NCBI GenBank assembly: GCA_029571225.1
Contig: JAKPTF010000035.1
Span: 12,575 to 76,574, forward strand
Origin: Candidatus Omnitrophota bacterium
GTDB taxonomy: Bacteria; Omnitrophota; Gorgyraeia; Gygaellales; Profunditerraquicolaceae
Direction of reading: 5' to 3'
Length of the DNA: 64,000 nt
Made by a program: the position numbers and the translations under genes. Shown piece after piece: positions 1 through 15,313 of the stretch. The stretch's first letter is position 1. Each line of letters opens with the position of its first letter. The notes beneath the pieces are model-generated. The model was not told where the DNA came from. It did no database searches and worked only from the letters and a program-made list of their open reading frames with translations.

Positions 1-180
1 CTGCTTCAGCGCGGTCAAAGCGCCCGCATTCTCGAAGATCGTATTGGCGCCGATGACCAGCGCACCCTGGGTTTTTTGTTCGGCGCGCACCGCATTCACG
101 ACATTGCCGAAATACGTCGAAACCGCCTGGTACACGGCCTGATCCATCTCAAACAACGGCGCGGGCATATTCGTTGCAAC
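1..180 (-). repeat. Shared C-terminal domain, copy 1 (partial, continues beyond window), preceded by KDGG at 181-189
   Basis: ...GRVLKDGGVATNMPAPLFEMDQ...QGALVIGANTIFENAGALTALKQ matches GALVIGANTIFENAGSIAALTQ (PGI-like) and GAVILGANAIMENAGSIAALEK (FBA-PFK-GAPDH). The DNA at 25-65 is also close to 7795-7830. Confidence 0.8.
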
Positions 181-3100
181 ACCGCCGTCCTTAAGCACGC
201 GGCCGACCTGCCCAGCGGGCTTTTGGGTCGTATCGACCACAACCGGAGTTTGAACATTTTCGAACACGACGACTTTTCTGGACGACGACGGATCAGCTTT
301 GTTCGCAGTTTCCAGCTTAGCCTCTGCGATGCTCGCGGCGATCCCGCCGAACCTGAGCAGCTCCTCCTCGGTCGCAAGGCGGCGCCATTCGTCCCAGAAG
401 ATATCAACGCCTGCCCACGCGGCGCCGAGTTTGAGCGTGTCGTAGCTGATAAAGCTCAAGCCTGTGCCCAGGTCCTTGAAATATTCCAGATATTTGTCCA
501 GCTCGAGCGTGTTGGCAGGCGTGGCGATATCGACACCGACCTCAAGGCCGTCCTCGCCGGGTATGATCTTCAAGTCTTTGAGGATGTCACGCCAGGCGAT
601 CATGATCGCGCCTGCTTGCGTTCCCTTGACATGGGTGATCTGCAGACCGAAGTTCTTGCGGTCCGCAGGCGGCAATGAATCGCGCACGTTCTTGAACGCC
701 TTCAATGCCATGCGGTTGATCTGCCACATGTCGCCGATTGCCCGCGCAGCTCCGGCAATGCCGTAATCGGGATTCGGGTTGACCTGCTCCTCGAGGAATC
801 CTGCGCGCAGATCGCTGAACTGGACACAGTTGAGGCTATCTGTCTTGTGGATCACCAGCGCGCCGGGATGAGCCGCCAGGGCGCTGCGCATCGCTTCTTC
901 GAACTTTCCGGTGATGAACTGCTCGGCGGTCCGGCCGTTCAGAATCTTCGAGATGCCCGCGTTCAGGTCATCAAAGTACTGCCTGCGCAGGCCGCTGATC
1001 CAATCGTTGCCCAGCGACACCGCGCCTTTTTGCTTCGCGTCATCAAGGACATCAAGCATGAACTTTTTGATCACCGGCTCGCGCAGCGACTCGACTTTGG
1101 TTTCCAGCCTGGCAAGCAGCCATGCCCGCTTTTCGGCGCTGGTTTCCTGCATCACTTTTTCGACTTCATCAACGAGCTTGGCGACATAATCGTCAAACAT
1201 CTTGGCCTGCTCGGTCCAATCCTTCTTTTCGTATGCCAGGATAGCCCGGGGATGATACACCATGGCTGCGTACACGTCATTGGCGTTTTCGGCTACTGCC
1301 GCTTTGACCGGAACCTGCGGTTTCGTTTGCGGCACGGGAAGCCTGCGCAGCGGGGTTTTGATCTTGACGACATCGAGATTCCCTCTGTATATCTTCTTTG
1401 CGCCATAATCGACCGTCACGAACTTGCCTTCCAGAATGCCGCGCGAGGCGTTGATGCCTTTCGCTATTGCCTTGATACGCGTCGGAATGATTGATTTGTT
1501 CTTGTCGAAAACATCCCACCCGGTAAGGTCTGCGTCGGCGTCAACGATGATCGCCGGGACATACTGCAGATGCTGCCAGTCAATGCCTCTGCGTTTTAAT
1601 CCGGCAACGGAATTGTCCCAAGCCTTTTTCCACAGCTCAAGGATTTTCTTCCTGGCGTTCGGGTCCGTGATGCTGGCGTCAACCTGCTCCTTGAATTTCA
1701 TTTCGGGGACATCCAGGTTGGTCCAGACAAACAGGCCGTTATCCAGTTTCCGCATAAGCGGTTTCTGCCCCGGCGTGAGCGTCAGATATTCGAAAGCGCT
1801 TGCTCCGACTGCCGCGGATATCTCTTCCTTGGAAAAGGCGACCGGATTTCTGGTTATCACCGCGATCTTTTCGAAGAAGCGCGAAGTGGACCGGGCATCT
1901 TTCAGGCTTTGCAACTTGAGCGATTCCTTTTTGGCCAGAAGATCAGGGCCCTGCAGGCCTTTCAATGCGTCAGGAATCAGATCTTCGATGCCGTCCACGA
2001 AAACGATTTCGCCCTTGATAATGCCTTTTTTCTGCCGGACTTCACCCTGGCTCAGGTCGAACAGCGGATGTTTTTTTGCGTCATCAGGCAGGGATTTTAT
2101 TTCTTTCGTCGCAGCCATGACGTCGTACCGTGTCATGGACGCAGGCAGCCGGACTTTCATCATGCTGACGCCGAATGAATCCAGAAGCACCATGATCTTG
2201 CCCGCGGTTTCGTAATCGCCGCGGTTGACCAGGGCGGTGATCGCCTCGCCGCACAGACTTGTCGCAACCTCTTCATCTTCTGCGGATGCGACAACCGCTT
2301 CGATCAGCTGGAGCATAACGTCGGCGCCTTCATCGATGAGCGGAAGCCGCTTGGTCCCCTCGTCGTAAAAGTATCCGGCGCGTTTCATCTCGGGTATGGC
2401 CGCGATGGCTGCCGGATCCATGATCTTGAGTTTCATCTTCGGGTCCTCGCGGTCTCCCATGCCGGCAAGATGCGAATAGTCGTTGGTGCCGAACGAAAAG
2501 AACGTATGCTCAACGCCGTATTTCTTATATTTCCTGCCCATATCGGCCATTTTCTTTGCAAGCTGCGGCACATCCATGGCAGCGCTCGGAACCTCGATCA
2601 TGATGCCGATTTCTTTGGGCAATTTTCCTTTTTGCCTGGCCTTATACTCGATGATCGTATCCAGTGTTTCCAGCTCGCGGATCGAGCGTATGAAAACATA
2701 AAACCAGGCCTGGTTTTTGGTATTCTGATGCGCTTCGATGACCGAATCGAACAGAAAATCGAGCACAAGCTGGTTCCCGCCGAACTGTTCGTCAAACGCC
2801 TCGATCTCAAGCGAAGTTCCGCGCAGGCCGACAAGGGGATTGACCCCCGGCCATGAGAATATCTCGGAGCCGGGCATGCCGCGGATCTTATCCTGGGCAA
2901 AATCATACGCGCGGTTCTTGGCAACCTGGTCAGGCGCGATGGTAAATCCCATGAGGTTATAAAAATAGAGAAACTCCTTGCTCACGTACTCTTTGAAGTT
3001 TGCATACCCTTTTTCATTCAGTTTTTTATTAACCTCATCCAGTATCCAGGGATGATTCTGCAGGTCGGTCAGAATGTTGTAATTATAGTTGAACCTGCGC

Positions 3101-6100
3101 TGGAACTTGCCGTAGGCATATGAGAAAAACTCATAGTCGTCCTTGTTTAATCCTTCCACAAAATTAAGATCGGCTTTTTGCTGCGGAAACACCTGCGCCG
3201 CATCTATCTTGTTCAACCTAATATCAGACATCAGGTCAAAAACAGACAGAACGGACAGCATATCGTTTATCTCCGGCAGCCGGCCGTAGGTTTTTACGAA
3301 CGTAGCTGCGGCTGTCGGGTGTTTGCGCATATACTCAAACATTTCCCGGCTCATAGTATCGAGGAACTTTTCCGCGCCTGGCATGGACGTGCGTGCCCGG
3401 TCATTCGCGTATACCCGCTGCGGCATTGCAATTGTGCCGTCTGCGATCTGCTGAAGCAGGAAATGTCCGTAGCCCGCATACACATTGATGCCGATCTCCT
3501 CGCCCTTGAACTCGGCGCGCGTCAGGGCATTGCCTGCAGAGTCGGTCGCGAGCATGATGGGTGAATTCTGCTGGGCTGCGCTCGTGGCCGCGATAATCTG
3601 GCCAATTTTCGGATAGGGCATGTTATCCGGATCTCCAGGAATCAAAGGCGGCTCAACCGTAAACTCTACGTAATTGACCGGTATGCGCTTTTCCGGATCA
3701 GAATCCATTTCGTAGATATTGCCGTTATTTGCGTCAACAGTAAGCGCATCGCCGGTCTTGACAAGCTGACCTCCAAGCATGACCTTCCCGGCGCCCGTTA
3801 CCGCCGGAATACCCTGCTCGCGGCAGAAAATCGCAGCATGACACGTATCCCCGCCACGGATCGTGACGACGGAATTAACGAGGCGCATAATCGGATCGTG
3901 GTTCGGATCCGCTTCCAGAAGGTATAGGATGACAGGAAGCGGGTTATCAGGGCCGATATCGTTCAAGTCAAACCCGATCTCCTGTATGCGCCGGCGTTCC
4001 TCATCGGTGAAATCCCCTGATTTCAACCTGCGGATCTGGTCGGCATGCCAGGCGATATCCTTGTTCGGATCGAACACAAGCACGTATCCGTGCGTGGCGT
4101 TTTCTCCTTTCGTACCGCTGGCAATCGGTTTGGCATCCGAATGATCTTCGATCCATTTTTCATCGGCCTCTGTCCTGGCACGGACGACGTCCGTTTTAAG
4201 GTATTCCGCGGTATACGGCCGCGCCTGGACATTGTACAGCCGCATGGGCATTGCCTTGATGCGCGCCTTATCCTCCTCGCTTTTAACCTCAGCGCGCTCG
4301 CCCCTGGCATCCACCCCCCATATCCGGCCGTCTACGTCTATTTCGTAGATGCGCAGCGCCTTGTCTTCGGGCGCGGTCCGGTCGACTTCGATGGCGAATT
4401 CGATATCGCGTTTGTCACCGTAATATTCGACGATATTCCACCCCATGCGCGCGACATGCGCTGCCATTTCGTCGGCAAACGTAAAGGTGTTCTGATGGAC
4501 CTTGGTCGTCTTGAAATTCGACGTAAAGCTGTTATCGACGAGCGCCCGCATGAGATAGCTCAGATTTTCCATCTCCACGCCGGAAAGGCCGAGTTTATTG
4601 AGCACGGCAATCCGTTCGGGAAGTTCGAATTCCTTGTTCTCCCATGTCTCTTTGATCATGTAGATGAACGTATCGGCTTTCTTCATATCGCCGAGCTGCG
4701 CTGCCAGTTTATGCATACCGCGGGTTGTCTCTTTTTCCGCTTTGGTGACTTCCTCGAAGACGTTACGCACAACGCCCGATAATTCCGCTTCCTGAAAACC
4801 TTTTTCGCCCTTGCGATGAGCAATGAGAAATCGCTCCTTGATAAAATCCATGACCGCCGCTTCTGGTTCTTTGGCTTTGATCATGGCGGCAATGTCATTG
4901 GCAATACGCTGCACCTGAGCCTTTTTCTGTTTTTCGTCAATACCTTCTGCTCTCAAATATCTGGTACCGTATAATTTGGTAGCCAGGATACCGTTAATGC
5001 GCTTGCCAACCTCGTCATAGGCAATCGCTTCTTTGAGCGTGACGGCCAGCGTATTCAATTCTTTTTCGCTCATCTTGCCCGTGAAAGACTCGATCACATC
5101 CTCGACATTGCGCATCTGAATAAGTTTATTGCCCTTGTTCTTTTCGATCACGAACCAGTGTTCGCCGTCATACGTCGCCATGACATACTTGTCAGGGCTG
5201 ACCTTGCCGCCGACCACGTTTTCCCCGTATCCGAACGCGATCTCGAAGCTGGCTACGATCGCCTTGGTGCCGGTGATCAGTCCGGTCTTTTTATCCCTGA
5301 AAAGCAGAGAATCATCGTTCTTGAACCATGCGTTGTATAAGGACTGAGCTACGCCGGCCATTTTCGTTGCGGGATTGACGGTAAACAGGACGCCTGCAAG
5401 ATAACTCTTGACCATCTGCATGATGACGACGTCGATGCCGATCTGTTCAGGATGCGTCACCTCTTCGGATTTCTTTTTCAGCACCTTGAGTGCCTCAGCC
5501 AGCCACTCTTCCCGCTCGTGACTCAAAATTTCTTCCATCGCATTCATAAGATTTACGGACCCGGGATTCGGGCTCGATATTTGCGACATCTGGTCGGCAT
5601 ACGCGGCATATTCGGGCTTGTTGAGCTTCTTGGCATATTCCCGCAGTTTTGCCACAATGTCCCAATACACATCCTGCGAAAGCTTGCCTTGATAGTCGAT
5701 GGCTCCTGAAAACTGCAGGAATGTGGCGTCATCGCGGTAGCTGACTGCGCGGTCGGTAAAAAGGCTTGCGAAATCAGCGCGGGTCTTATCAAGGACCGCT
5801 TTGTCGCCTTTGACGTTCAAAAATGTATCCGATTGCCCTGCCTGCGAACCGGTGGATACCGGCAGCCAGGTCTTGACATGGATATCCTCTTTCGTGCCCG
5901 AGGAGCGCACGGCGACTGCCGCAGGAACGGCCTTGCCTGTGACCTGATACCTGATCATGCTCAACTGGTGGTACATCGAGATGATCTCATCCTTGATATC
6001 CGTCGGGATGGGAGCGTTCTTTATGGTTTCCCTTATCTCAGACGTAACCACATCCCGCTTCTGGTCGTCCATGGTGTCCAGCGTCTGAAGCTCATTGAAT

Positions 6101-7179
6101 ATCTTTTCCCAGACGTTCCTGTTGTTCCTGACAAACTCGAAATATGCCGTCGTTGTGACGTTCTGTCCGCGCGGCACATCAACGATACGGGACATGACCG
6201 ACAGGCTCAATCCCTTGCCGCCTGCAAGCGCAAGGCCTACCTGCTTGGCCTGTCTGCGGCCGACCTCTTTGGCGTCTTCAGAAACCGACACCTGTGTCGA
6301 AACATCAGTCGCGACACCGGTCACTGCGATAGCCCCTGCCCCTGCGCCGGCGGTTTCCGCCCCGCCGGTCGGGCCAAACATCGGCCCCGCACCCATCCCC
6401 ATATGGACCATGTCGCTGCCGACGAGCAGGGCAGCCATTTCCTTTGCCTTTTCCATCCCGACTTTCCTGGCCAGTTCATACACATAATCGCGCAATTCGC
6501 CGAACTCCACGACCATGCGCTCATTGACCGGGACCAGGCTTCTTTTTTCCAGCACCAGATAATCGTGGACGAGAATATCCACGACCGAAATCCCTTCCCG
6601 TTTCATTGCCGCGACATCCTCTTCGATGTTCTCGGCATCGCGCGCGAACACCGATAGCGGCAGATCCGGAATATCGCTGACGATCGCCTTGACCACGTGT
6701 TCCCCGGCAGCGTCCTCTTTCACCAAAGCAAGGGGAATGTCCGTATAGGTCAGGGTGTAAAATTTATCGCCCGGGTTGACCGCGCCGAAATAGTCCGCAA
6801 GATTCGCCTTTGCCCTGGGAGAACGAGCCAGGTCTATCTGCTGTTTTATAAATGTCCCGTAGGCGAGATTATCGATGGTCGCCGAAATCTTATAGTCGCC
6901 CAGAAATGCCTTGAAGGCATCCGCGCCTTTTGCCTCCTGGGAAGCGCCTGACCCGCCGTCCTTTGGAGCGAGAATCTCGGTTTTGGCAACTGACGCGGGC
7001 GCGACGTCAAGCGCCCGGCGTATCTCGGTAAGCCTGCCGCCGTCACGCGCAGGCGCGGGACGCAGGTTCGAATCACCAGCCAGCGCGCGCAGGGGCGCTG
7101 CACTCACGATAAACTGGACGGAAACAATGACGGCGATTATCTTTCTGGTAAACATAGATTTCGTCAACCTCTGGAACAT
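1..7179 (-). CDS. Giant PEP-utilising enzyme (pyruvate,phosphate dikinase / PEP synthase family) with signal-like N-terminus and shared C-terminal domain; >=2393 aa, 3' end runs off the window
   Basis: Absent from the ORF track because it has no in-window stop. Reading the minus strand from ATG 7177-7179 (GGAGGA 5 nt upstream) gives an unbroken frame to position 1 (7179 nt = 2393 codons). No listed minus-strand ORF lies in this frame. Motifs read: GGKGLSLSVM, VAVRSSGTKEDI, GYGENVVGG, DIEFAIE (ATP-grasp half); TIRGGDTCHAAIFCREQGIPAVTG (phospho-His swivel, His codon 3838-3840); NPLVGLRGTS, GIMIEVPSAAM, FFSFGTNDYSHL, LCGEA (PEP/pyruvate barrel). The N-terminus MFQRLTKSMFTRKIIAVIVSVQFIVSAAPLRALA is signal-peptide-like. 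Confidence 0.88.
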   Translation of the reverse strand, partial: MFQRLTKSMFTRKIIAVIVSVQFIVSAAPLRALAGDSNLRPAPARDGGRLTEIRRALDVAPASVAKTEILAPKDGGSGASQEAKGADAFKAFLGDYKISATIDNLAYGTFIKQQIDLARSPRAKANLADYFGAVNPGDKFYTLTYTDIPLALVKEDAAGEHVVKAIVSDIPDLPLSVFARDAENIEEDVAAMKREGISVVDILVHDYLVLEKRSLVPVNERMVVEFGELRDYVYELARKVGMEKAKEMAALLVGSDMVHMGMGAGPMFGPTGGAETAGAGAGAIAVTGVATDVSTQVSVSEDAKEVGRRQAKQVGLALAGGKGLSLSVMSRIVDVPRGQNVTTTAYFEFVRNNRNVWEKIFNELQTLDTMDDQKRDVVTSEIRETIKNAPIPTDIKDEIISMYHQLSMIRYQVTGKAVPAAVAVRSSGTKEDIHVKTWLPVSTGSQAGQSDTFLNVKGDKAVLDKTRADFASLFTDRAVSYRDDATFLQFSGAIDYQGKLSQDVYWDIVAKLREYAKKLNKPEYAAYADQMSQISSPNPGSVNLMNAMEEILSHEREEWLAEALKVLKKKSEEVTHPEQIGIDVVIMQMVKSYLAGVLFTVNPATKMAGVAQSLYNAWFKNDDSLLFRDKKTGLITGTKAIVASFEIAFGYGENVVGGKVSPDKYVMATYDGEHWFVIEKNKGNKLIQMRNVEDVIESFTGKMSEKELNTLAVTLKEAIAYDEVGKRINGILATKLYGTRYLRAEGIDEKQKKAQVQRIANDIAAMIKAKEPEAAVMDFIKERFLIAHRKGEKGFQEAELSGVVRNVFEEVTKAEKETTRGMHKLAAQLGDMKKADTFIYMIKETWENKEFELPERIAVLNKLGLSGVEMENLSYLMRALVDNSFTSNFKTTKVHQNTFTFADEMAAHVARMGWNIVEYYGDKRDIEFAIEVDRTAPEDKALRIYEIDVDGRIWGVDARGERAEVKSEEDKARIKAMPMRLYNVQARPYTAEYLKTDVVRARTEADEKWIEDHSDAKPIASGTKGENATHGYVLVFDPNKDIAWHADQIRRLKSGDFTDEERRRIQEIGFDLNDIGPDNPLPVILYLLEADPNHDPIMRLVNSVVTIRGGDTCHAAIFCREQGIPAVTGAGKVMLGGQLVKTGDALTVDANNGNIYEMDSDPEKRIPVNYVEFTVEPPLIPGDPDNMPYPKIGQIIAATSAAQQNSPIMLATDSAGNALTRAEFKGEEIGINVYAGYGHFLLQQIADGTIAMPQRVYANDRARTSMPGAEKFLDTMSREMFEYMRKHPTAAATFVKTYGRLPEINDMLSVLSVFDLMSDIRLNKIDAAQVFPQQKADLNFVEGLNKDDYEFFSYAYGKFQRRFNYNYNILTDLQNHPWILDEVNKKLNEKGYANFKEYVSKEFLYFYNLMGFTIAPDQVAKNRAYDFAQDKIRGMPGSEIFSWPGVNPLVGLRGTSLEIEAFDEQFGGNQLVLDFLFDSVIEAHQNTKNQAWFYVFIRSIRELETLDTIIEYKARQKGKLPKEIGIMIEVPSAAMDVPQLAKKMADMGRKYKKYGVEHTFFSFGTNDYSHLAGMGDREDPKMKLKIMDPAAIAAIPEMKRAGYFYDEGTKRLPLIDEGADVMLQLIEAVVASAEDEEVATSLCGEAITALVNRGDYETAGKIMVLLDSFGVSMMKVRLPASMTRYDVMAATKEIKSLPDDAKKHPLFDLSQGEVRQKKGIIKGEIVFVDGIEDLIPDALKGLQGPDLLAKKESLKLQSLKDARSTSRFFEKIAVITRNPVAFSKEEISAAVGASAFEYLTLTPGQKPLMRKLDNGLFVWTNLDVPEMKFKEQVDASITDPNARKKILELWKKAWDNSVAGLKRRGIDWQHLQYVPAIIVDADADLTGWDVFDKNKSIIPTRIKAIAKGINASRGILEGKFVTVDYGAKKIYRGNLDVVKIKTPLRRLPVPQTKPQVPVKAAVAENANDVYAAMVYHPRAILAYEKKDWTEQAKMFDDYVAKLVDEVEKVMQETSAEKRAWLLARLETKVESLREPVIKKFMLDVLDDAKQKGAVSLGNDWISGLRRQYFDDLNAGISKILNGRTAEQFITGKFEEAMRSALAAHPGALVIHKTDSLNCVQFSDLRAGFLEEQVNPNPDYGIAGAARAIGDMWQINRMALKAFKNVRDSLPPADRKNFGLQITHVKGTQAGAIMIAWRDILKDLKIIPGEDGLEVGVDIATPANTLELDKYLEYFKDLGTGLSFISYDTLKLGAAWAGVDIFWDEWRRLATEEELLRFGGIAASIAEAKLETANKADPSSSRKVVVFENVQTPVVVDTTQKPAGQVGRVLKDGGVATNMPAPLFEMDQAVYQAVSTYFGNVVNAVRAEQKTQGALVIGANTIFENAGALTALKQ
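2230..3620 (-). other. PEP/pyruvate-binding TIM-barrel domain (PEP-utilisers C)
   Basis: GNALTRAEF, NPLVGLRGTSLEIE, KEIGIMIEVPSAAM, HTFFSFGTNDYSHLAGMGDRED and SLCGEAITA occur in canonical order. Confidence 0.8.
3700..4140 (-). other. Phosphohistidine swivel (PEP-utilisers mobile) domain
   Basis: IASGTKGENATHGYVLVF ... TIRGGDTCHAAIFCREQGIPAVTGAG ... GDALTVDANNGNIYE. The catalytic His codon is at 3838-3840. Confidence 0.85.
4385..6260 (-). other. ATP-grasp / nucleotide-binding region of the PPDK/PEPS-like protein (with insertions)
   Basis: Runs from GGKGLSLSVM (about 6200-6235) through VAVRSSGTKEDI and GYGENVVGGKVSPDKY (about 5190-5240) to YGDKRDIEFAIEVD (about 4385-4425). The motif order is as in PPDK_N. 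Confidence 0.75.
6952..7179 (-). other. N-terminal leader: signal-like hydrophobic segment + NLRP motif + two DGG sites
   Basis: MFQRLTKSMFTRKIIAVIVSVQFIVSAAPLRALAGDSNLRPAPARDGG...ILAPKDGG. DGG codons are at 7036-7044 and 6952-6960, checked against the DNA. Confidence 0.6.
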
Positions 7180-7217
7180 TGTACTCCTCCCATGTTAGGA
7201 CGATTTTAAAATATCGG

Positions 7218-10073
7218 TTATATCTTGTTCAATGTATCTTCGAATATCACCTGGAGTCTGGCTATGTCATCGCTGACCGCAACCAGCGGAATATCCGATA
7301 TCTGAGCTGTTAATTCATTAAGGGACTTGGCATCCGCCTCGCTGATCATGCCCCTGTCCTTAAATGCCTGCACCATTTTGGCGAACTGCGCTCTCGTAGT
7401 GCCGACGTCGAATATAATGGCGATCGCCTTGGCGATTGCCAGCGGGACTGCGTTGATCTGTTTGACCGCCCCTGCCGTCCGCGCGGTCGAAACATGGACC
7501 ATCTGCAGCTCGCGATTATTGTTGAAGAATACGCTTGCATCGGGTACCTTGTACTCATCCTTGATATTATCGAGATCGAGATCCGAGTTGATGAGCACGA
7601 CTTTTCTGGGTGATATTTTGAGCTTCTCCATTGCCATGAGGGTTTCGCCCAGGCCCGTGTAGATTGTCGCTATTTTGTCAACGCCCAGCGCCTTTAACGC
7701 TGCGACGTCATCGTTATTCCTGGCCCATACGGCTATGGTGAGGACATTGGCCGCGTCGCGTGCCTGAGTGAGCGCTGCAATGCTGCCCGCGTTCTCGAAT
7801 ATGGTGTTGGCACCGATGACCAGCGCTCCTTCGATCCCTTCTATTTCGCGAACGCCCTTGATGATACCTTCATACATAAATGACGTTGCGCTGTACACGT
7901 TTCGGTCGGCGTCCTCGATGAACGCGGCAGCTTTACCAACAAGAGAATCGGCCGCATCCCGTACCCGTGCGAGGTCCAGATACGCCTTGACCTTGGAGAA
8001 AAAGTCCGCATACGCGCTTTCGACCTCAGGGGTCATCTGCTCGGCAACGAACAATACCGCTTTGCGCGGATCGAGCGAAGTGTACATCGCCTTGACCGTG
8101 CCGATGGTCTGGGCGAAAAGCAGGTTATCGTCGAATGGCACAGCCGGCTGGGGATTATTCAATGACGTAAAATATGTGGAAAAGAACATGTTCCTGCCGT
8201 CCTGGATGTTCTGCTGGTACGAATGGTTCTTATCCGGCCCTTCACCGAGTTTCGAAGGTATCCGGAGGCCGCGGGTAAATATGTCCCGGCGGGCGTCTTC
8301 AAGAATCCTCGTCATGGCAGGGCTCAGCTTGCCGTATGAAGACAACTCAGCGGCATTGAACTCGGTCTCGCCTGCTTTGGCCTTCTGTTCCAGAATCTGG
8401 GTGATTGCCGCATACACTGCAGCCGCGTTCTGCATATCCGCGCCCATTCTGCGCACCTGCGCGTCCAGAGCATCGGCAGTGATAATCCCTGACATGACAA
8501 GCGGCGCATAATACAGCGTGAATGCGTTTAAGTAATCGGCCGAAAACGGCGCCCATGCTGCCAGAACATCCTGTTTGGTTTGCCCGGAATCCTTCATGGC
8601 TTGAGCAATCGCCTTTGATTCTTTTTTGTATGCTTCGACGCCCGGTTGATTCACAAACCTGATATCCCATAAATAACCGATCGTCGCTACCATGCGCTGC
8701 AATCCGAGCATAACCCCGCCGATATCGGTAATATCCTTGATATTGATCTCCAGGGTCGGATACCCGTTTTCCTGCAGATACTTCCAGAATTCCCTGTTTG
8801 TCTCTGTTGCGCCGAGGTTAATCCTTAGGAAAACGCGGTCATTCTCATCAGCCGGCTTCAAAGACGCTTTCCACTGGTCATTGTCCGTTCCCAGGTCTTC
8901 TCCGTAAAAGACCGTGACGCCTTTTCCATCCTTGCCGAGCGATTCCTCGAATAGTTGTTCGGCCCACATAGGCAGAGCATTCAGTTTTTTCGGCACCAGC
9001 ATGGTCAGCTTGTCTTGTTTCAGATTTCTGGCGCGCACGAAGATCTCTGCCCCCATTTTCAGAAAATCGCCCTCACTGAGGCCCGAATTCATCCGCACGG
9101 CGCTCTTTAATATCGGCTCGATATCATCAGCCCCGGGCGTCAATGACCACGGAAGCATGAATATATTCGTGGTCGGCGCGGTAAACCGTCCCCCCACGTC
9201 CTTGAGATTATATACTTTGCCGGGGTTGACATCGTTCATCTGGATATATGCCCCCTGGCCTTTTTTGACATGGTCCCCATCCCACGGGCTGCCGGGATCG
9301 GTCACGTAAAACAAATGTTTTTCCGGGCCGGACACTGCGTATGCTTCGAATAATTTCCTGAAATATTTCTCGTGCTCAGTGGTTTCCTGGGTGGTCGCTG
9401 TCTTTGACATGAAAACCGCAACGGTTTTTTCCAAACCCGCCTTCATGTCATTACCCTCGGCACGCGCGATCTCATCGAGTATGGCTTTTATCGCGGCAGG
9501 ATCGGTGGTCCTCAGGCTATAGAACGGAGTACCTTCAGAATCGGGATCAAATGTTTGTTTGACCAGCTCCACGCTTAAGCCTGACCCGCCCATTCCACAG
9601 AACACCGCGTATTTAAAGCGGTTTACCAGCATTAAATTTTTAAGCCCTGTCGCCTGCCAGGGGACATATTCGTCAGCGCGCGCCAGATCGTCCAGAATAG
9701 CCTGGGCATTCCTCACGGTCCACCCAAGGCGAGAGGTAACGCCGTCTTCCTCATATCCCCACGCCGCGAAATCGCTGTCCGCCGACTCAAGCCGCTCGTT
9801 CATGCGCTCGGCCTTCAATCGTTGCATAAGCGTTTCGACTTCCCGTTTAACATTCACCGGCTTTCCGCCGTCTTTCAAAAGCGATAAGCGGCTGATGCCG
9901 AGATCCTGGCCAAGACTGTGTAAGCGCGAATTGCTCTGCTTTGCCGAAACCGGCCGGAGGTTATTGCCAGCAGCATAACCAGGAACAGCAATGCTATCGA
10001 CAAAAAAAGCCGCGCTCATGGCTACGGCTATTGCTTTACGAACGCGCCTTAAAGTTTCCGTCGAAGCAGGCAT
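7218..10073 (-). CDS. Glucose-6-phosphate isomerase (PGI/SIS family)-like protein with signal-like leader and shared C-terminal domain, 951 aa
   Basis: ORF track entry. GGGGGAGA sits upstream of the ATG. PGI motifs: FCGMGGSGLS, FMSKTATTQETTE, VGGRFTAPT, EESLGKDGKG, GPDKNHSYQQNIQDG. The N-terminus RKAIAVAMSAAFFVDSIAVPGYAAG is signal-like. Confidence 0.88.
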   Translation of the reverse strand: MPASTETLRRVRKAIAVAMSAAFFVDSIAVPGYAAGNNLRPVSAKQSNSRLHSLGQDLGISRLSLLKDGGKPVNVKREVETLMQRLKAERMNERLESADSDFAAWGYEEDGVTSRLGWTVRNAQAILDDLARADEYVPWQATGLKNLMLVNRFKYAVFCGMGGSGLSVELVKQTFDPDSEGTPFYSLRTTDPAAIKAILDEIARAEGNDMKAGLEKTVAVFMSKTATTQETTEHEKYFRKLFEAYAVSGPEKHLFYVTDPGSPWDGDHVKKGQGAYIQMNDVNPGKVYNLKDVGGRFTAPTTNIFMLPWSLTPGADDIEPILKSAVRMNSGLSEGDFLKMGAEIFVRARNLKQDKLTMLVPKKLNALPMWAEQLFEESLGKDGKGVTVFYGEDLGTDNDQWKASLKPADENDRVFLRINLGATETNREFWKYLQENGYPTLEINIKDITDIGGVMLGLQRMVATIGYLWDIRFVNQPGVEAYKKESKAIAQAMKDSGQTKQDVLAAWAPFSADYLNAFTLYYAPLVMSGIITADALDAQVRRMGADMQNAAAVYAAITQILEQKAKAGETEFNAAELSSYGKLSPAMTRILEDARRDIFTRGLRIPSKLGEGPDKNHSYQQNIQDGRNMFFSTYFTSLNNPQPAVPFDDNLLFAQTIGTVKAMYTSLDPRKAVLFVAEQMTPEVESAYADFFSKVKAYLDLARVRDAADSLVGKAAAFIEDADRNVYSATSFMYEGIIKGVREIEGIEGALVIGANTIFENAGSIAALTQARDAANVLTIAVWARNNDDVAALKALGVDKIATIYTGLGETLMAMEKLKISPRKVVLINSDLDLDNIKDEYKVPDASVFFNNNRELQMVHVSTARTAGAVKQINAVPLAIAKAIAIIFDVGTTRAQFAKMVQAFKDRGMISEADAKSLNELTAQISDIPLVAVSDDIARLQVIFEDTLNKI
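7221..7931 (-). repeat. Shared C-terminal domain, copy 2 (about 237 aa, ends VIFEDTLNKI)
   Basis: GALVIGANTIFENAGSIAAL...VWARNNDD...IATIYTGL...DLDNIKDEYKVPDASVFF...INAVPLAIAKAIAIIF...GMISEADAKSL...IPLVAVSDDIARLQVIFEDTLNKI. It is collinear with the 1726-aa protein tail. Confidence 0.85.
7974..9776 (-). other. PGI-like catalytic region
   Basis: Covers aa about 100-700 of the 951-aa protein. The PGI motifs listed for the CDS occur in canonical order. Confidence 0.75.
9864..10073 (-). other. N-terminal leader: signal-like segment + NLRP + KDGG
   Basis: MPASTETLRRVRKAIAVAMSAAFFVDSIAVPGYAAGNNLRPVSAK...SRLSLLKDGG. DGG codons at 9864-9872 were checked in the DNA. Confidence 0.6.
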
Positions 10074-10120
10074 TATCTCCCCCTTTTTATCGGCTTAGAT
10101 GGCATTACGATATATGCATG

Positions 10121-10153
10121 CCTGCGCGGCAGGCATCATGCCTGCCGCGCAGG
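10121..10153. repeat. GC-rich perfect inverted repeat (16+1+16 nt) in the intergenic gap between the FBA-PFK-GAPDH and PGI-like genes
   Basis: CCTGCGCGGCAGGCAT-C-ATGCCTGCCGCGCAGG. It lies 10 nt downstream of the TAA (10163-10165) on the transcribed strand. No U-tract follows it. Confidence 0.6.
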
Positions 10154-10162
10154 TAATTGATA

Positions 10163-13100
10163 TTAAATCTTGTTGAGCGTATCTTCGTACACGGTCTGCA
10201 TTGCTGCGACTTCGTCGCTGACAGACACCAGCGGCACATCGGCCAGCTGCGCGGCGAGCTGCGTGATGTTAAGCAGGTCTTCCGAGCTGATGAGGCCTTT
10301 GTTCATATACGCAGCGGCCATGTTCTGGAGCTGCTGTCTGACCGTATCCTCGGTATTGAAGATCATGGCGAGTGCCTTTGCCATGACAAGCGGCATCGCA
10401 TTGATGCGTTTCTGCGTGACGGCCGCGCGGGATCCGGTTACGCGCACGTTCTTCACCTTTGCCTTTTCGAAGAACAGCGACGCATCGGATACGGTAAACT
10501 CGGCTTCGATATTGTCCATATCGGCATCCGCGCTGATGAGCGCGATCCTGGCCTGCGGGATCTTTGCCGCGGTCACTGCCTCAAGTGCCGCCTTCAAACC
10601 AACATGGATCGTCGCGATCCGGCCGACCCCTAATGCCTCAAGGGTCAGCTTAGCCGCGTCGTCCTTTGCCCATACGCTGAAGTCCACAACGCCTGCCGCA
10701 TCTTTTGCTTTCTCGAGCGCCGCGATGCTGCCGGCGTTTTCCATGATGGCGTTGGCGCCGAGGATAACCGCGCCCCTGGCGTTCTGGACATCGCTGATTG
10801 ATTTGACGAGATCATCGAAGTTCAACGCGCCTGCATTGTACACGCTTGCATCGCTCTTAAGCACAGTCTCGATGAGATCGGCGATATCGACCATTTCGGG
10901 AAGCACCGTCTCTGTTTGCGCAAGCGCAACGGAGGCGCCTCCGTCCTTTGCATAGTCGCCATTGACGAGGGCGCGCATTCTCACGCCGTCCACCATCCAC
11001 GGTGACCATTTGGAGATCATCTGGTTGGGAGCGGCTGACTGGTTGTCATACAGGCCTTTGATGATCACGGTCTTCTTGTTTTCCAGCACCTGGATCAGCA
11101 CGCTGTCGATGATTGATATATTGTTCCAGCCGACGACCGCATTGACATCGAGCGGGCCAGGGTTGACCTCTGGATCGCCCTCATAGAATTTCACCACTCC
11201 GTCCGACTTGTTGAGCGCGAAATCCTTCAAAGCGGCACGGACCTCCTCCACGGTAGTTTCTCTTTTCAGGTTCAGGGTCACTTCCCACAGGGACGCAGAA
11301 ACCGTATCCGTGCGCACAGCGGTTATCTCGAACTTGCCTTTGAGCTGCGGTATCATCTTGAACAGGTTCTTCTTGGCCCCGGTGGAGGCGGGAATGATAT
11401 TGTCGCGGATCGAATCTCCGCGGGCAATATCAAGCGGGTCGCGCGCCCTCTTGCTCTTCATGGGGAAAGTCTCGTTCGAATCGGTCTCCGAATGGATGGT
11501 CAGGCCGGTCCCGTTGACGATACCGAACTCGTCCCACATGGCCTTGATGACCGAGATCATGGCGTTGGACGTGCAACTGAGCGTGTCAACGATCTTGACA
11601 TCCGGCCCGATCTGTTTGCGCATGGCAGAATACAGCGCTTCTTTGAACACGGCGCTGACGGATTTATCGACCGTGTCGGCGCTGACGCCTTCCTGAAGGA
11701 ACTTTTCCTTGAGCATATTCTTCACCGCGTCGGTGTTGACCGGGGAGGCGGCGACAACGGGGAATCCGGCTTCCATGAACTCCTTGAAAATGCGCGGCTG
11801 GACCTTTTCGTCAGTCGGGCCGTAATACGATACCACATCCGGCTTGACTCCGAGTGTCCTGACGGTATCGAGCACCTGCTGATTCGTCGTTTCTGGGCCG
11901 AAATACGGAATCTTTATATCGGGCCTTCCTATATTTTTGTCGCCCGGCACGAAGATGAAATTGACCTCGACGCCGTCAACGACCCTGCGCTCGTCCTTGA
12001 GCACGCGCATACCTTTCACCTGGTACGGCCCGAACGGGCCGTTGTACCTGCTGTTCATGCGCACGAATTCCTCTGCGCTGGCTTCTTTGCCGCCCTTCAT
12101 GGACTTGAGAGCCGCCAGATTGACGCCCGGCTCCCAGTTCTTATAGAAAAGCGCAAACGCTCCGGCGCGGAAAATAAGCGCGTTCGCCGCGATGACCACG
12201 ATGTTCTGGTCCTGCAATGCCAGATCAAGCTTCTTGGGCGTATTGCTTTTCGCAAAAACGCCCATTCCGGCAAGGATCTTGACCTGCGCAAGCTGCCGGT
12301 CATCGATACGGTGCAGGATCCTTCTGATCGACTGCATGACTTCCTGGTTATCGCCGCTTTCCTTCTTGATTGTATTCAATTTCCACAGAACAGCCTTCAT
12401 TTCATCAAGGCCAAGGGACAGTATCTCACCCGGCTTGAGCTGATACAAACGCTTGACCGCAGCCTGATACCGCAGTTGATTCATAGCTGCCTTACCAAGC
12501 TTGAGGTTTGTTTTTTCATTGACAAGCGCCATATTCGCCAGCAGGTATTCATCGCGGTGGGCGCCTTTGTAATCCAGCTGCCTGCCGCCGAGTTCCTGAT
12601 CGAACGGTATGGACTTGATCTGGCCCTTATAGGCGTAGAGCAGCTGATTGTTCTGAAGGTCGGCGATTTTCTCAACAGCCGCTTTGCCGAGCATGCCGGT
12701 CATTTCCTCGTCAAGTTTGGAAATATCAGCCGAGCGGAAAAGATAATCGGCCTTGCCTGCGAGGCTGATGTCGATTTTATCTTCCTTGAGCGCCGTCTTT
12801 ACCACGGCCGCGACGATTAAACCGGCGTTCTCGAGTTTGGGATGACCGAAATCGTCAACGCCGGCTTTCATTGATTTAATGAACGCCGCTTTGGCAACCG
12901 GATCGCTGTTGAACGCCGCCAGCAGCAGCTTGACATCGGCATTGCGGGGCTTGACGACTTCAAGGTCTCCGTTGTCGTTCAGCCTGAAGCCGTCGGTCGC
13001 GATGCTGGCTCCTTCAGCTACGACGACGACGCCGTATTTGTTCTGCTTGTAATACGCTCGCAGATCATCCACCAGCTTCTTCAGATCCACCATCTCTTCG

Positions 13101-15313
13101 GGGATCAGGGTACGGGTAGCACCGACATTGGCGCCGATGCGCGCCGCAACAAACCCTGCGCTTCTGCCGAACACTTCGCCGATGAGAATCCTTTTTGTCG
13201 ATATGGCGTCGATTTTTCCGGCTTCGAAGGCGTCCGTAGCGGCCCGGGTAAAGCTGTCAAAACCATAGGTCTGCGCATCCGGTTCTGGAAGCGCGATATC
13301 ATTGTCCATGGTCTTGGGCAGGCCGATAAAAAGGAATTCAGGATGCTCTTTCTGCAGCTTTGCCGTAACGCCATTGGTATCGTCGCCGCCCAGGGTAACA
13401 AGGCCGTCCAGATCGAGCTTTTTGATATTCTCCCAGACTTTCTGCGCGTCACCTTCCTTTTTATACGGATTGGTGCGGCTTGTCTTTATGAATGTGCCGC
13501 CTTTTTTCTCCCACTTTTCGGCTTCCGAAAGGCGTATCGCCCTGGCCTGCGCCACAAGATCGTCTTTGATGAGGCCGGCCCATCCTTCGGGGATAGCAAC
13601 GATCTCGATACCGTTCTTCAGACCTTCGCGCACCATCGCTGCAAGGACCTTGTTATGCCCTGACGCGGGTCCGCCGCCGGTTAACACTCCAATCCTCTTG
13701 GGTCCGACCAACTGTGAAAATTTGACCCCCTGGCGGTCGGTAACGACCTGCTCCTTATACCTGATACCGGTGATAAATTCCACGGCATCGGCAACGGTCG
13801 AGTTCTCTTTGCCGCCGATCTCGCCGACTTCGGCTTCCAACCCGGCGTCCTCGGGAATAAAACCGGCAAGAAATGCGCTCACAAGCACGTTCAAGCGCGT
13901 GGGCATGAACGACGCGTCAAGCGCAAAGACGGCATGATCTTCTGCAACCTGCTTCTTTACCTGAAGCATGGCCTTGTTGACTGCCTTCATCGCTTTGCCC
14001 ACGCCGGGCGCTGCGTTGAATGCTTCGTCCTTTAAGGCCGCATTGAACATGGCTTCTCTTTTCGCGATGTCTTTTTCAGCCAGTATCCTCTCGAACAGCT
14101 CCGCAACCGCATTCTGCGCCCCCGTGTCCTTCAGGAATGCTTCATCGACTTTGACGGTGACGTGGTCCGACTTGTTCATATAATCGCGGAAACCCTCTTT
14201 CATCGCGGCTGCTTTGGTGTTTGCCGCAAACCTGGCGACGTTATCGAGGCTGTATCCGCCCGGCCAGGTGTAATCGAGTTCGCTCATGGCTTGCTGGAAC
14301 ACGACCACACTGCCGGTCTTTTTTGCCGCGCGTATGATGCCGGGCAGGCTGAGCGGATGGCGTATATTGCAGCACATGATCGCCTTATCCGTTCCTTCGA
14401 GCGCCTTGAACACATGATAACCCTTGAGCGACGAAAAATCGGACGGGTATTCCAGGCCGTTGGCCTGATAATAATCCCTGACCATCTGCGCCGTGCCGTC
14501 AGAGCCAAAACCGATCATGTGCTCGGTCGCCGATTTCTCGGTCGCGGCGTCGATCTTTTCGATAAGGCGCGCGGGAAGCCCCAGAAGCTCCTGATGGAAA
14601 TCGCCGATGACCATTTTCAGCTCTTTGCCCAGAAGCTTGTCGAGGTCTTTGTCTTTTCCTGCGACATACACGCTGTTCTTGGCTTCATCGCTGCGGGGAG
14701 AAACCTTGTATTTCTTTTCCACGTCCGCGGTCTTGGCGATCGTCGCGTCGATCATGCGGTTGACGATTGATTTGGCCGTCGCGTCTCCGTTCTGCGCTTC
14801 GGCAACAAGCGTTTCCCAGATGATATTCTGCCAGTTCGTGCCGACGTGAGCGGCGCTGATGCCGACATTGCGCAAGGCCTGGAGGTTCTCAATGGGAGTA
14901 CCGGTAACGCCGTGCTGCACGATCTTGACGCCGTAGGGTTTGATCGCTTCGTAAATGGCGCCGGTCATCTTCAGGTTCATCTGCGTCTTGATGAGATTGC
15001 CTTCGGCATCGTAGTTGTTGCCGTGGGCGGTGCCGTTATTGATCGCAAGACGCTGGATCATGCGCGGCAGGTAATCAGCAAGCCCCTTGCCTTTGCTCAC
15101 CACGATGAATTTCCCGGTCGCCAGCGAACCGCCGTCCTTGCCGAGAAACTCGCTTTTCATGGCCAGAGGCTGATTGGTATGGTTGGCCGATCTGCCCCGG
15201 AGGTGGTCAAATGAGACGACGCCTGCCATCGAGGCGGTGTTGAACGTGAATATGCCGATAATAAGCAATGCCGTTATCCTGAATAACACCCGAGCGAACC
15301 GTGAACCGTTCAT
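10163..15313 (-). CDS. Triple-enzyme fusion: class II fructose-bisphosphate aldolase (permuted) + phosphofructokinase (PPi-type motifs) + GAPDH, with leader and shared C-terminal domain
   Basis: The ORF track gives 10163..15343 (1726 aa). I prefer the ATG at 15311-15313 (MNGSRFARVLF...) because AAGGAG lies about 8 nt upstream and it removes the overlap with the upstream stop (15330-15332). Domain motifs are listed in the sub-features. Confidence 0.88.
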   Translation of the reverse strand: MNGSRFARVLFRITALLIIGIFTFNTASMAGVVSFDHLRGRSANHTNQPLAMKSEFLGKDGGSLATGKFIVVSKGKGLADYLPRMIQRLAINNGTAHGNNYDAEGNLIKTQMNLKMTGAIYEAIKPYGVKIVQHGVTGTPIENLQALRNVGISAAHVGTNWQNIIWETLVAEAQNGDATAKSIVNRMIDATIAKTADVEKKYKVSPRSDEAKNSVYVAGKDKDLDKLLGKELKMVIGDFHQELLGLPARLIEKIDAATEKSATEHMIGFGSDGTAQMVRDYYQANGLEYPSDFSSLKGYHVFKALEGTDKAIMCCNIRHPLSLPGIIRAAKKTGSVVVFQQAMSELDYTWPGGYSLDNVARFAANTKAAAMKEGFRDYMNKSDHVTVKVDEAFLKDTGAQNAVAELFERILAEKDIAKREAMFNAALKDEAFNAAPGVGKAMKAVNKAMLQVKKQVAEDHAVFALDASFMPTRLNVLVSAFLAGFIPEDAGLEAEVGEIGGKENSTVADAVEFITGIRYKEQVVTDRQGVKFSQLVGPKRIGVLTGGGPASGHNKVLAAMVREGLKNGIEIVAIPEGWAGLIKDDLVAQARAIRLSEAEKWEKKGGTFIKTSRTNPYKKEGDAQKVWENIKKLDLDGLVTLGGDDTNGVTAKLQKEHPEFLFIGLPKTMDNDIALPEPDAQTYGFDSFTRAATDAFEAGKIDAISTKRILIGEVFGRSAGFVAARIGANVGATRTLIPEEMVDLKKLVDDLRAYYKQNKYGVVVVAEGASIATDGFRLNDNGDLEVVKPRNADVKLLLAAFNSDPVAKAAFIKSMKAGVDDFGHPKLENAGLIVAAVVKTALKEDKIDISLAGKADYLFRSADISKLDEEMTGMLGKAAVEKIADLQNNQLLYAYKGQIKSIPFDQELGGRQLDYKGAHRDEYLLANMALVNEKTNLKLGKAAMNQLRYQAAVKRLYQLKPGEILSLGLDEMKAVLWKLNTIKKESGDNQEVMQSIRRILHRIDDRQLAQVKILAGMGVFAKSNTPKKLDLALQDQNIVVIAANALIFRAGAFALFYKNWEPGVNLAALKSMKGGKEASAEEFVRMNSRYNGPFGPYQVKGMRVLKDERRVVDGVEVNFIFVPGDKNIGRPDIKIPYFGPETTNQQVLDTVRTLGVKPDVVSYYGPTDEKVQPRIFKEFMEAGFPVVAASPVNTDAVKNMLKEKFLQEGVSADTVDKSVSAVFKEALYSAMRKQIGPDVKIVDTLSCTSNAMISVIKAMWDEFGIVNGTGLTIHSETDSNETFPMKSKRARDPLDIARGDSIRDNIIPASTGAKKNLFKMIPQLKGKFEITAVRTDTVSASLWEVTLNLKRETTVEEVRAALKDFALNKSDGVVKFYEGDPEVNPGPLDVNAVVGWNNISIIDSVLIQVLENKKTVIIKGLYDNQSAAPNQMISKWSPWMVDGVRMRALVNGDYAKDGGASVALAQTETVLPEMVDIADLIETVLKSDASVYNAGALNFDDLVKSISDVQNARGAVILGANAIMENAGSIAALEKAKDAAGVVDFSVWAKDDAAKLTLEALGVGRIATIHVGLKAALEAVTAAKIPQARIALISADADMDNIEAEFTVSDASLFFEKAKVKNVRVTGSRAAVTQKRINAMPLVMAKALAMIFNTEDTVRQQLQNMAAAYMNKGLISSEDLLNITQLAAQLADVPLVSVSDEVAAMQTVYEDTLNKI
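10166..10906 (-). repeat. Shared C-terminal domain, copy 3 (about 247 aa, ends TVYEDTLNKI), preceded by KDGG at 10937-10945
   Basis: GAVILGANAIMENAGSIAAL...VWAKDDA...IATIHVGL...DMDNIEAEFTVSDASLFF...INAMPLVMAKALAMIF...GLISSEDLLNI...VPLVSVSDEVAAMQTVYEDTLNKI. Confidence 0.85.
10994..12286 (-). other. GAPDH-like domain (divergent NAD-binding half + catalytic half)
   Basis: VDTLSCTSNAMISVIKAMWDEFGIVNGTGLTIHSETDSNE (catalytic Cys and His context) and IIPASTGAKKNLFKMIPQLKGKFEITAVRTDTVSASLWEVTLNL. The N-terminal half is only weakly Rossmann-like (VKILAGMGVFAKS). Confidence 0.72.
12644..13702 (-). other. Phosphofructokinase domain (GGDD / PKTMDND motifs typical of PPi-dependent PFKs)
   Basis: KRIGVLTGGGPASGHNKV, TSRTNPYK, LVTLGGDDTNGV, IGLPKTMDNDI, GRSAGFVA. 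Confidence 0.8.
13754..14446 (-). other. Class II FBA, N-terminal two-thirds (placed second)
   Basis: KGYHVFKALEGTDKAIMCCNIRHPLSLPGIIRAAKKTGSVVVFQQ corresponds to the FbaA N-terminus (...FALPAVNCVGTDSINAVLETAAKVKAPVIVQFS). KSDH corresponds to HTDH. GLEAEVGEIGGKENS corresponds to TLEIELGCTGGEEDG. Confidence 0.7.
14744..15121 (-). other. Class II FBA, C-terminal third (placed first in the polypeptide)
   Basis: GTAHGNNY corresponds to E. coli FbaA GNVHGVYK. VQHGVTGTP corresponds to VFHGGSGST. AAHVGTNWQNIIWETL corresponds to KMNIDTDTQWATWEGVL. Confidence 0.7.
15128..15313 (-). other. N-terminal leader: signal-like segment + HLRG + KDGG
   Basis: MNGSRFARVLFRITALLIIGIFTFNTASMAGVVSFDHLRGRSANHTNQPLAMKSEFLGKDGG. 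DGG codons at 15128-15136 were checked in the DNA. Confidence 0.6.

Follow-up and report, generated by a model that had tools for sequence, protein, structure and literature searches.

Why cytosolic glycolytic enzymes should begin with signal-like segments, and what connects them with a giant open reading frame (ORF) encoded beside them, is the question raised by the stretch of DNA analysed here, 64,000 nt of a Candidatus Omnitrophota bacterium (GenBank assembly GCA_029571225.1, contig JAKPTF010000035.1, positions 12,575 to 76,574), which is called the window below and in which all long ORFs lie on the minus strand. A sequence-only reading had described three consecutive glycolytic mega-enzymes with a common leader and a common C-terminal domain (CTD); the leaders and KDGG positions that it quoted match the minus-strand ORFs exactly, and the homology of both leader and CTD among the three proteins is borne out by hidden Markov model (HMM) matches and alignments. 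The three genes, together with a fourth one past the window start, are an Omnitrophota-specific operon that encodes nearly the whole of glycolysis as a few fused mega-enzymes. Their chassis, with the leader at one end and the CTD at the other, is shared by homology between different enzymes and throughout the phylum, carries glycolytic cargo only and always follows a giant ORF and a protein of Tiki/TraB-like fold. [K/R]DGG marks junctions at the level of the protein, in this chassis and between the modules of the giant ORF alike. With slightly less than even confidence, we read the leader as a bipartite targeting sequence and pro-sequence, the CTD as a docking domain and [K/R]DGG as the site of a Gly-Gly endopeptidase that also serves the giant polyprotein.

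The mega-enzymes and their genes

Enzyme identities were assigned with Pfam and NCBIfam, every score being far under the curated equivalog cut-offs. The PEP synthase/PPDK-like mega-enzyme (1..7179, minus strand, ATG at 7179; Pfam PPDK_N, PEP-utilizers and PEP-utilizers_C) is cut by the window start and was completed from a second contig, L005, whose nucleotides 1-3380 correspond to window positions 3380-1 at 100% identity and which extends the locus beyond the window; the full protein measures ~2573 amino acids (aa), and its phosphohistidine domain retains the catalytic motif GGDTCHAAI. The second gene encodes a PGI-like protein of 951 aa (7218..10073, minus strand) with a weak Pfam PGI match and an NCBIfam transaldolase/PGI match at 6.5e-41, identical to the NCBI entry HQJ15126.1, which is annotated 'hypothetical protein, Candidatus Omnitrophota bacterium'; the window proteins are identical to NCBI entries of a 'Candidatus Omnitrophota bacterium' metagenome-assembled genome (MAG). 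The third is a class II FBA-PFK-GAPDH fusion of 1716 aa (10163..15313, minus strand, ATG at 15313; Pfam F_bP_aldolase, PFK and Gp_dh_C) carrying the signatures GGDDT and MDNDI of PFK and SCTSN of GAPDH, and the same architecture recurs in P0005, P0029, L002, L010, L019 and L020.

The fourth mega-enzyme, encoded on L005 past the window start, has 2311 aa with TIM-like, M54-like, PGK and enolase modules and the same leader and C-terminal layout as the three window proteins. None of the four mega-enzymes has a recognisable phosphoglycerate mutase domain. An archaemetzincin-like domain (Peptidase_M54) occupies aa 1099-1236 of the fourth protein (L005:3924-10856, plus strand), between DGGs at 1032 and 1241; its HExxHxxGxxH zinc site is lost while the CxxxC...CxxC cysteines are kept, and it is probably a pseudo-protease. 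With that motif gone, the domain was discarded as a candidate for the processing protease.

A common N-terminal leader

The leader is made up, in this order, of a basic n-region, a hydrophobic stretch of ~20 aa that closes with an AxA-type site, the box [D/N/H]-x-L-R-[P/G], a short helix ('DL') and [K/R]DGG, and measures from the Met to the last DGG 76, 70 and 62 aa in the PPDK-like, PGI-like and FBA-PFK-GAPDH proteins respectively. In the PPDK-like leader (6952..7179, minus strand; leader HMM E 1.3e-15; MFQRLTKSMFTRKIIAVIVSVQFIVSAAPLRALA↓GDSNLRPAPARDGG...APKDGG, the arrow marking the predicted cleavage site here and below), the signal-like part covers aa 1-34 (RALA↓G) and is followed by an SNLRP box (7068-7057), a proximal RDGG (7044-7036), the amphipathic 'DL' stretch RLTEIRRALDV and a distal KDGG (6960-6952), a two-DGG layout that is kept in P0006 and L006. 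The PGI-like leader (9864..10073, minus strand; E 2.2e-16; signal-like aa 1-34, PGYA↓A) reads ...IAVPGYA↓AGNNLRPVSAK...LLKDGG, with an NNLRP box at 9962-9951, an 'LGQDL' box and the KDGG at 9872-9864. That of the FBA-PFK-GAPDH protein (15128..15313, minus strand; E 7.8e-14; signal-like aa 1-30, ASMA↓G) reads ...NTASMA↓GVVSFDHLRGRSA...LGKDGG, with a DHLRG box at 15208-15194 and the KDGG at 15136-15128.

The N-termini of ~46 full-length family members can be aligned across the entire leader, and 50 leaders of unrelated enzymes show the same ordered boxes. The n-region is basic and often of the form MxxQFFK[RK]SLLxR (consensus FFK[RK]SLLxR), the h-region of ~20 aa has a conserved F-I-L-T-S-x-P-V-x-x-Y-A with small residues at -3/-1, and directly after the AxA-type site stands a conserved [D/N/S]-x-L-R-(P)-x-x-A-K in which Leu is invariant and Arg at least 90% conserved, followed ~8 residues later by an amphipathic Φxx[D/E]L. 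[K/R]DGG is present in 27 of 44 family leaders, 8-10 residues past LR, past the DL box or in both places, the spacing from the DL box to the GG ranging from 2 to 15 aa.

The signal-like character noticed in the sequence-only reading is supported by inspection of the 50 aligned leaders, which have 2-4 K/R before the h-region, P/G near -6 and sites of the kind RALA↓G, PGYA↓A, ASMA↓G and AFA↓A. By this heuristic call, the first part of the leader looks like a good Sec/SRP (signal recognition particle) signal with a signal-peptidase I site, and its n-region and h-region are both longer than those of ordinary lipoprotein and secretory signals on the same contigs. Other kinds of signal were considered and set aside. 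The (S/T)-R-R-x-F-L-K motif of a Tat signal is absent, RR occurring only in the PGI leader and the family having K-R or K-K; there is neither a lipobox L-x-x-C nor a conserved Cys as in lipoproteins, true lipoboxes (LAGC, LCGC) being found in neighbouring solute-binding proteins; and the prepilin-type motif is likewise missing. The hydrophobic segments are N-terminal and common to unrelated enzymes, and therefore they are not buried core helices, the case in which the notion of a signal would have had to be abandoned.

No family was found for the leader in Pfam, NCBIfam or a PDB sequence search, and a profile of 47 leaders gave no match at E <= 0.01 against 5.8 billion proteins because the profile is too short. 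Within 14 further loci and the window, the leader HMM run against all ORFs of at least 80 aa matched only tandem mega-enzyme genes. More members had been expected if the leader was a real shared element, and they were found in the fourth gene of the same genome and in ~44 cluster representatives elsewhere.

The DGG motif at leader ends and module borders

DGG is the most over-represented tripeptide of the window ORFs, with 43 occurrences observed and 5.98 expected (7.2-fold), the runner-up being 4.0-fold. K or R stands at -1 in 25 of the 43 sites, and the 20 residues upstream are linker-like, with few F, W or I and many P, N and A. Among 44 complete family representatives from other metagenomes, the density of DGG is 10.4 per 1000 aa in the leader compared with 0.31 expected (33-fold), 3.1 per 1000 aa (3.5-fold) over the 65 aa that precede the CTD and 0.44 per 1000 aa, about background, in the enzyme cores, where the few DGGs are ordinary enzyme motifs such as DDGGPTCHAAI.

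A second KDGG, announced for two of the three window proteins, is located exactly where it had been placed. That of the PPDK-like protein (181..189, minus strand) lies 15 aa ahead of the CTD profile start and 42 aa ahead of the GA(L/V)(V/I)(I/L)GAN core of the CTD, the closest relative, L006, having KKTG at this position; that of the FBA-PFK-GAPDH protein (10937..10945, minus strand) lies 31 aa ahead of the profile start and 59 aa ahead of the core, and is kept in L001, L002, L004, L010, L011, L013 and L019 and absent in L020. The PGI-like protein has no second KDGG. Extra DGGs separate the fused modules of other mega-enzymes, at 1032 and 1241 in L005 and at 1058 and 1526 in L006.

The giant ORF is divided by the same motif

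The giant ORF (17077..64000, minus strand) runs past the window end, the window holding its C-terminal 15,639+ aa, and is of the 'Archaeovorin' type, being very long, encoded in Omnitrophota, rich in transmembrane (TM) helices and composed of mixed enzyme domains. Twelve Pfam types were found in it (DUF1152, TIM, TPR, M50, six to seven AAA_5, VWA, CoaE, HEAT, ROK, Cation_efflux, HAD and GNAT), along with 37 hydrophobic stretches, hydropathy segmentation being too crude for reliable helix counts.

The DGG that ends the leaders is, as had been claimed, the motif that punctuates this ORF, where it occurs 37 times and splits the protein into units of 65-938 aa plus one unit of 2330 aa with a midasin-like AAA ring. 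None of the 37 DGGs falls inside a Pfam best stretch, though these stretches cover ~24% of the residues (simple binomial ~5e-5), and the DUF1152, TIM, M50, CDF, GNAT, CoaE and HAD domains each have a border no more than ~50 residues from a DGG. Hydrophobic helices follow within 60 aa after 13 of the 37 motifs, and complete membrane proteins, a CDF transporter and an M50 protease, begin right after a DGG. Paralogy is evident in seven units of 434-510 aa, each running from one DGG to the next, which can be aligned in register as far as their terminal DGGs; the duplicated unit is therefore one bounded by DGG. A short recurring motif is thus placed at the borders of independently functional modules, as is the case in polyproteins.

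One domain seemed to speak against this boundary role, since a DGG inside the TIM barrel would contradict it. The giant-ORF TIM (window 60967-61740, minus strand, aa ~753-1010) is circularly permuted, starting at β3 (GAQN) directly after the DGG, with β1 and its catalytic Asn/Lys (FNLKM or LNLKL) placed after the usual C-terminus, and the same permuted TIM starting at a DGG is found in a distant giant (L015:2-9751, aa ~399-640). The DGG is accordingly not inside the barrel.

C-terminal stretches of seven other giant or very large Omnitrophota ORFs contain 1.5-6.3 DGG per 1000 aa; the loci whose leaders have no DGG, L003 and L014, do not extend to a giant ORF. In one of them (L020:3-9833, plus strand), tandem 14-aa units DGGW[SA][ED]DRRVAS[LVT][CR] are repeated in two to three copies at three junctions (aa 524-560, 1140-1170 and 1791-1821), and these units are like spacer peptides. 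The signal and LRP part of the leader is not present within the giant ORF, DGG alone being common to both.

Two further observations concern the make-up of the giant protein. The seven paralogous modules of ~450 aa (window ~33190-55790, minus strand; giant-ORF aa 2737-3246, 3683-4127, 6458-6904, 7904-8811 and 9346-10269) open with a hydrophobic pair or hairpin and close with ...W(Y/H)xLN(K/H)A(L/V)DP...[K/R]DGG, their soluble part having no Pfam match. A midasin/MoxR-like module (window ~40450-50590, minus strand, aa ~4470-7850) contains the six to seven AAA_5 domains together with midasin lid domains, and the VWA domain lies ~1300 aa further on.

A C-terminal domain of HAD-like fold

The CTD common to the mega-enzymes has ~230 aa and ends in -NKI. 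In the PGI-like protein (7221..7910, minus strand, 230 aa) and in the FBA-PFK-GAPDH protein (10166..10852, minus strand) it ends EDTLNKI at the stop codon, whereas in the PPDK-like protein only its start lies in the window (1..144, minus strand; CTD HMM positions 2-49, E 1.7e-16), the rest continuing on L005 to the end ...FEDTLNKI. The fold is that of the HAD Rossmannoids, and motif I of HAD phosphatases is altered, the nucleophile DxD being replaced by G-A-N in a first strand (G-A-L-V-I-G-A-N-T) that has no Asp. G34, A35 and N41-A42-G43 are invariant. The CTD further differs from HAD phosphatases in being always the last domain and in ending in a conserved amphipathic helix, which makes up its last ~20 residues with a terminal K-I/V (-[NSG]K[IV]). 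These features suggest a catalytically dead HAD-like module serving docking or assembly.

The CTD matched nothing in Pfam, NCBIfam or the PDB sequences. A search of 1.84 billion representatives with its profile yielded no more than 100 clusters, in all of which the domain closes the protein; all genome matches are Omnitrophota MAGs and every taxonomically placed cluster is from Omnitrophota. Two types can be distinguished, type A ending ...TLNKI and a divergent type B ending ...EEFFNKV or EFMTRV, the latter on TIM-PGK-enolase proteins. Type B (KALIIGPEFF...) is barely detected by the type-A profile and was seen at L005:3924-10856, L006:10691-18562, L010:10712-15256, L012:10597-15264 and L013:9547-14268. 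Identity with a CTD of the type IX secretion system or with an autotransporter β-barrel was dismissed, the domain being neither a β-sandwich nor a β-barrel, and so was a GlyGly-CTERM/rhombosortase signal, as the mega-enzymes end in a soluble 230-aa domain and the giant-ORF DGGs that are followed by TM segments are all internal.

Distribution, cargo and conserved neighbourhood

Leader and CTD occur together in ~100 protein clusters, and every complete leader-bearing gene in the 14 loci and the window ends in a CTD of type A or B. The Pfam content of 34 members is PPDK/PEPS, PFK, GAPDH, FBA, PGK, TIM, GPI, enolase, GlpX and aldose epimerase, with little beyond glycolysis, the range of cargo being judged within 21 loci. 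The gene order, consisting of the giant ORF, a 509-aa protein and three to four genes with leader and CTD, is kept in 8 of 8 further contigs, one of them 1.87 Mb long; in one of the eight, the upstream ORF is merely very large (6,624 aa). Of the proposed common targeting-and-processing route tied to the giant ORF, the shared DGG motif and this synteny are upheld, and the part that would have the whole leader in the giant ORF is not.

The conserved 509-aa protein (15330..16859, minus strand) sits between the giant ORF and the glycolytic genes and has a signal or anchor of its own. No family was found for it at the sequence level with Pfam, NCBIfam or a PDB sequence search; its fold is Tiki/TraB/erythromycin-esterase/ChaN-like, and it differs from the Tiki/TraB/PrgY/erythromycin-esterase/ChaN superfamily by a very large helical insertion and by the lack of a sequence-level match. 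It may conceivably be a trimming hydrolase.

Directly downstream of the glycolytic genes, several relatives encode two ABC permeases and a solute-binding lipoprotein whose lipobox is LAGC or LCGC (L010:17255-20329, L012:17615-20689 and L013:14984-18135); together they resemble a sugar importer.

Cleavage, tethering or export

In the preferred reading, the signal part of the leader would take the growing chain to the cytoplasmic membrane or across it, its LRP/DL part would act as a second sorting or docking tag, and the CTD would link the enzymes, by docking, with one another or with the giant protein in a membrane-associated glycolytic assembly. A Gly-Gly-specific endopeptidase would cut at [K/R]DGG, removing the leader and sometimes the CTD, and would cut the giant ORF into protein-sized modules in the manner of a polyprotein; its most obvious candidates are C39 domains. 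In Omnitrophota giants, these were placed near the N-termini (10.1101/2023.11.21.568195), a part that lies outside the window, and neither the 15,639 aa of the giant ORF covered by the window nor the flanking genes gave a C39 match. The same work noted C39 and S8 peptidase domains in such giants and suspected cleavage, at 'cleavage points' that were unknown (10.1101/2023.11.21.568195).

Several observations weigh against this reading. No Gly-Gly-specific protease is encoded in the window, where M50 is the only peptidase domain found. DGG is missing from 17 of the 44 family leaders (39%), and before the CTD it is present in only 9 of 44 members, being gained and lost among close relatives; therefore, cleavage cannot be obligatory. 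The motif is also unlike canonical double-glycine leaders, having a Sec-like segment in front, variable spacing and usually K at -4. If the signal is functional, the leader DGG comes to lie outside the cytoplasm, while many giant-ORF DGGs flank AAA+, CoaE, ROK and GNAT domains that are normally cytoplasmic, so that either one protease is needed on both sides of the membrane or one of the topology assumptions is wrong. Lastly, the export of enzymes that depend on ATP, NAD or PPi is difficult to rationalise.

In the main rival reading, DGG would be a flexible hinge or N-cap that bounds independently folding modules and is left uncut, the leader would stay in place as an anchor in the membrane, and the CTD would serve for docking or oligomerisation, so that a glycolytic metabolon is tethered to the membrane next to the giant membrane protein and the sugar ABC importer and no proteolytic processing takes place. 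This alternative, which we regard as possible and somewhat unlikely, accounts for the linker-like surroundings of DGG, for its dispensability in 39% of the leaders and its turnover before the CTD, and for the want of a Gly-Gly protease in the window; the long (~20 aa) and conserved h-region would suit a lasting transmembrane helix, ABC sugar-uptake genes lie just downstream in relatives, and the enzymes require cytoplasmic cofactors. It does not explain, however, why selection should have kept precisely this tripeptide, with K/R at -1, in divergent lineages of differing GC content, nor the tandem 14-aa DGG units, nor protein-sized units, including complete membrane proteins, that begin right after a DGG. 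Moreover, with a basic n-region and an AxA site, the leader is predicted to be inserted N-in, to have a cleavable signal and to leave the enzyme on the outside, which is at odds with a tether in the cytoplasm.

True export goes further, with a signal that crosses the inner membrane and LRP...DGG and/or the CTD directing a second step to an enlarged periplasm or compartment, to the surface or to attached prey, where glycolysis would run on prey sugars with released modules of the giant. Sec-like features in all family members, a conserved box directly after the predicted signal-peptidase site, a signal or anchor on the adjacent Tiki/TraB-fold protein as well, and the predatory or epibiotic life of the relatives all agree with it; West-Roberts et al. 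predict the giant-ORF glycolytic domains to be extracellular, and loci resembling type II secretion systems and type IV pili adjoin the giant genes (10.1101/2023.11.21.568195). We consider it improbable, because nucleotides, PPi and NAD, on which PFK, PGK, PPDK and GAPDH depend, are not known to be accessible beyond the cytoplasm, because organisms that live by fermentation may have no glycolytic genes other than these, and because AAA+ ATPases and kinases are likewise among the domains of the giant ORF. Equally doubtful in our judgement is the most far-reaching combination, whereby leader and docking CTD send the entire glycolysis out of the cytoplasm, to an unrecognised compartment, the surface or attached prey, as a 'glycosome-like', transplantable targeting system and the giant is a true polyprotein cut at [K/R]DGG into ~40 or more proteins of ordinary size that act jointly with these enzymes.

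Codon usage bears on the last alternative. In the window and in L002-L017, the Asp of DGG is encoded as GAC in 87% of cases versus 66% in other D-G pairs (p = 0.001) and the first Gly as GGC in 76% versus 53% in other G-G pairs (p = 6e-4), a small effect that persists in contigs of 40-43% GC. A nucleotide-level signal (GACGGCGG marking a site of ribosome binding inside the gene, of RNA processing or of recombination or cassette joining) or a compositional accident, which this GAC/GGC excess might recall, is largely refuted and very improbable, since DGG is confined to frame 0 of the coding strand (37 sites in that frame, 1 in another and 0-3 on the opposite strand), the choice of its third codon is unconstrained, the GAC/GGC preference is for the most part common to all D-G and G-G pairs, no consistent Met, Val or Leu follows that would indicate internal translation starts, and chance is excluded by the 7-fold tripeptide excess and by positional conservation in 44 independent clusters.

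Relation to known systems

The closest counterparts are the 'Archaeovorin' giants of the same phylum (10.1101/2023.11.21.568195; PMC10066038; 10.64898/2026.06.07.730766), which are likewise TM-rich mosaics of enzyme domains, with TIM, GPI, FBA and PPDK domains noted in or near them and sugar-import genes downstream, as here. Giant proteins of 85,804 aa (10.1101/2023.11.21.568195) and of up to ~147,000 aa (10.64898/2026.06.07.730766) have been described. This giant-gene literature (10.1101/2023.11.21.568195; PMC10066038; 10.64898/2026.06.07.730766) makes no mention of DGG punctuation, of the leader or of the CTD.

The double-glycine leaders of C39 substrates (bacteriocins, NHLP/Nif11) also end in GG after a short helix with an acidic-Leu pair, and small residues often follow. 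They are, however, short (15-30 aa), have no Sec signal and show fixed positions -4, -7, -12 and -15 (LSxxELxxIxGG), whereas the leaders described here are of 50-76 aa with a Sec-like start, have invariably Asp at P3, usually Lys/Arg at P4 and mostly K/R/Q at -4, and precede cargo enzymes of 600-2600 aa with dozens of internal motifs and no such transporter next to the genes; they do not match the canonical form of such leaders. Self-processing polyproteins, such as those of viruses and the MARTX toxins, whose cysteine protease domain cuts between their effector modules, share with the present giant the very long ORF, the protein-sized modules and the short linker motif; in the giant, by contrast, the search found no active protease embedded between sites of its own, the modules are of the housekeeping enzyme and transporter type and resemble neither toxins nor replication proteins, and cleavage is a proposal.

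Functional analogies are offered by the glycosomes of trypanosomatids and by the bipartite signal-plus-transit presequences of complex plastids. As in such pathway-wide targeting, common terminal tags are carried here by a whole catabolic pathway, with a conserved extreme C-terminus (-[NSG]K[IV]) and, recalling the complex-plastid presequences, a conserved box at the predicted signal-peptidase site. There is no homology with either of them, the host here is a bacterium, any compartment would be hypothetical, and the C-terminal tag is a folded domain of 230 aa and not a tripeptide.

Implications

The elements proposed here, pre-pro leaders, Gly-Gly processing sites and polyprotein junctions, are of known kinds, and their predicted application to a whole central pathway would be unprecedented. 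A complete central pathway with one export-like leader and one C-terminal domain has not been described before in bacteria. The leader and CTD profiles identify a set of genes that are at present annotated as 'hypothetical' or as partial enzymes, and [K/R]DGG provides the first explicit candidate cut sites for Omnitrophota giant proteins, which can be checked in existing proteome data. If the leader is functional, glycolysis in these bacteria would be membrane-organised or extracytoplasmic, which would bear on how ultra-small predators feed.

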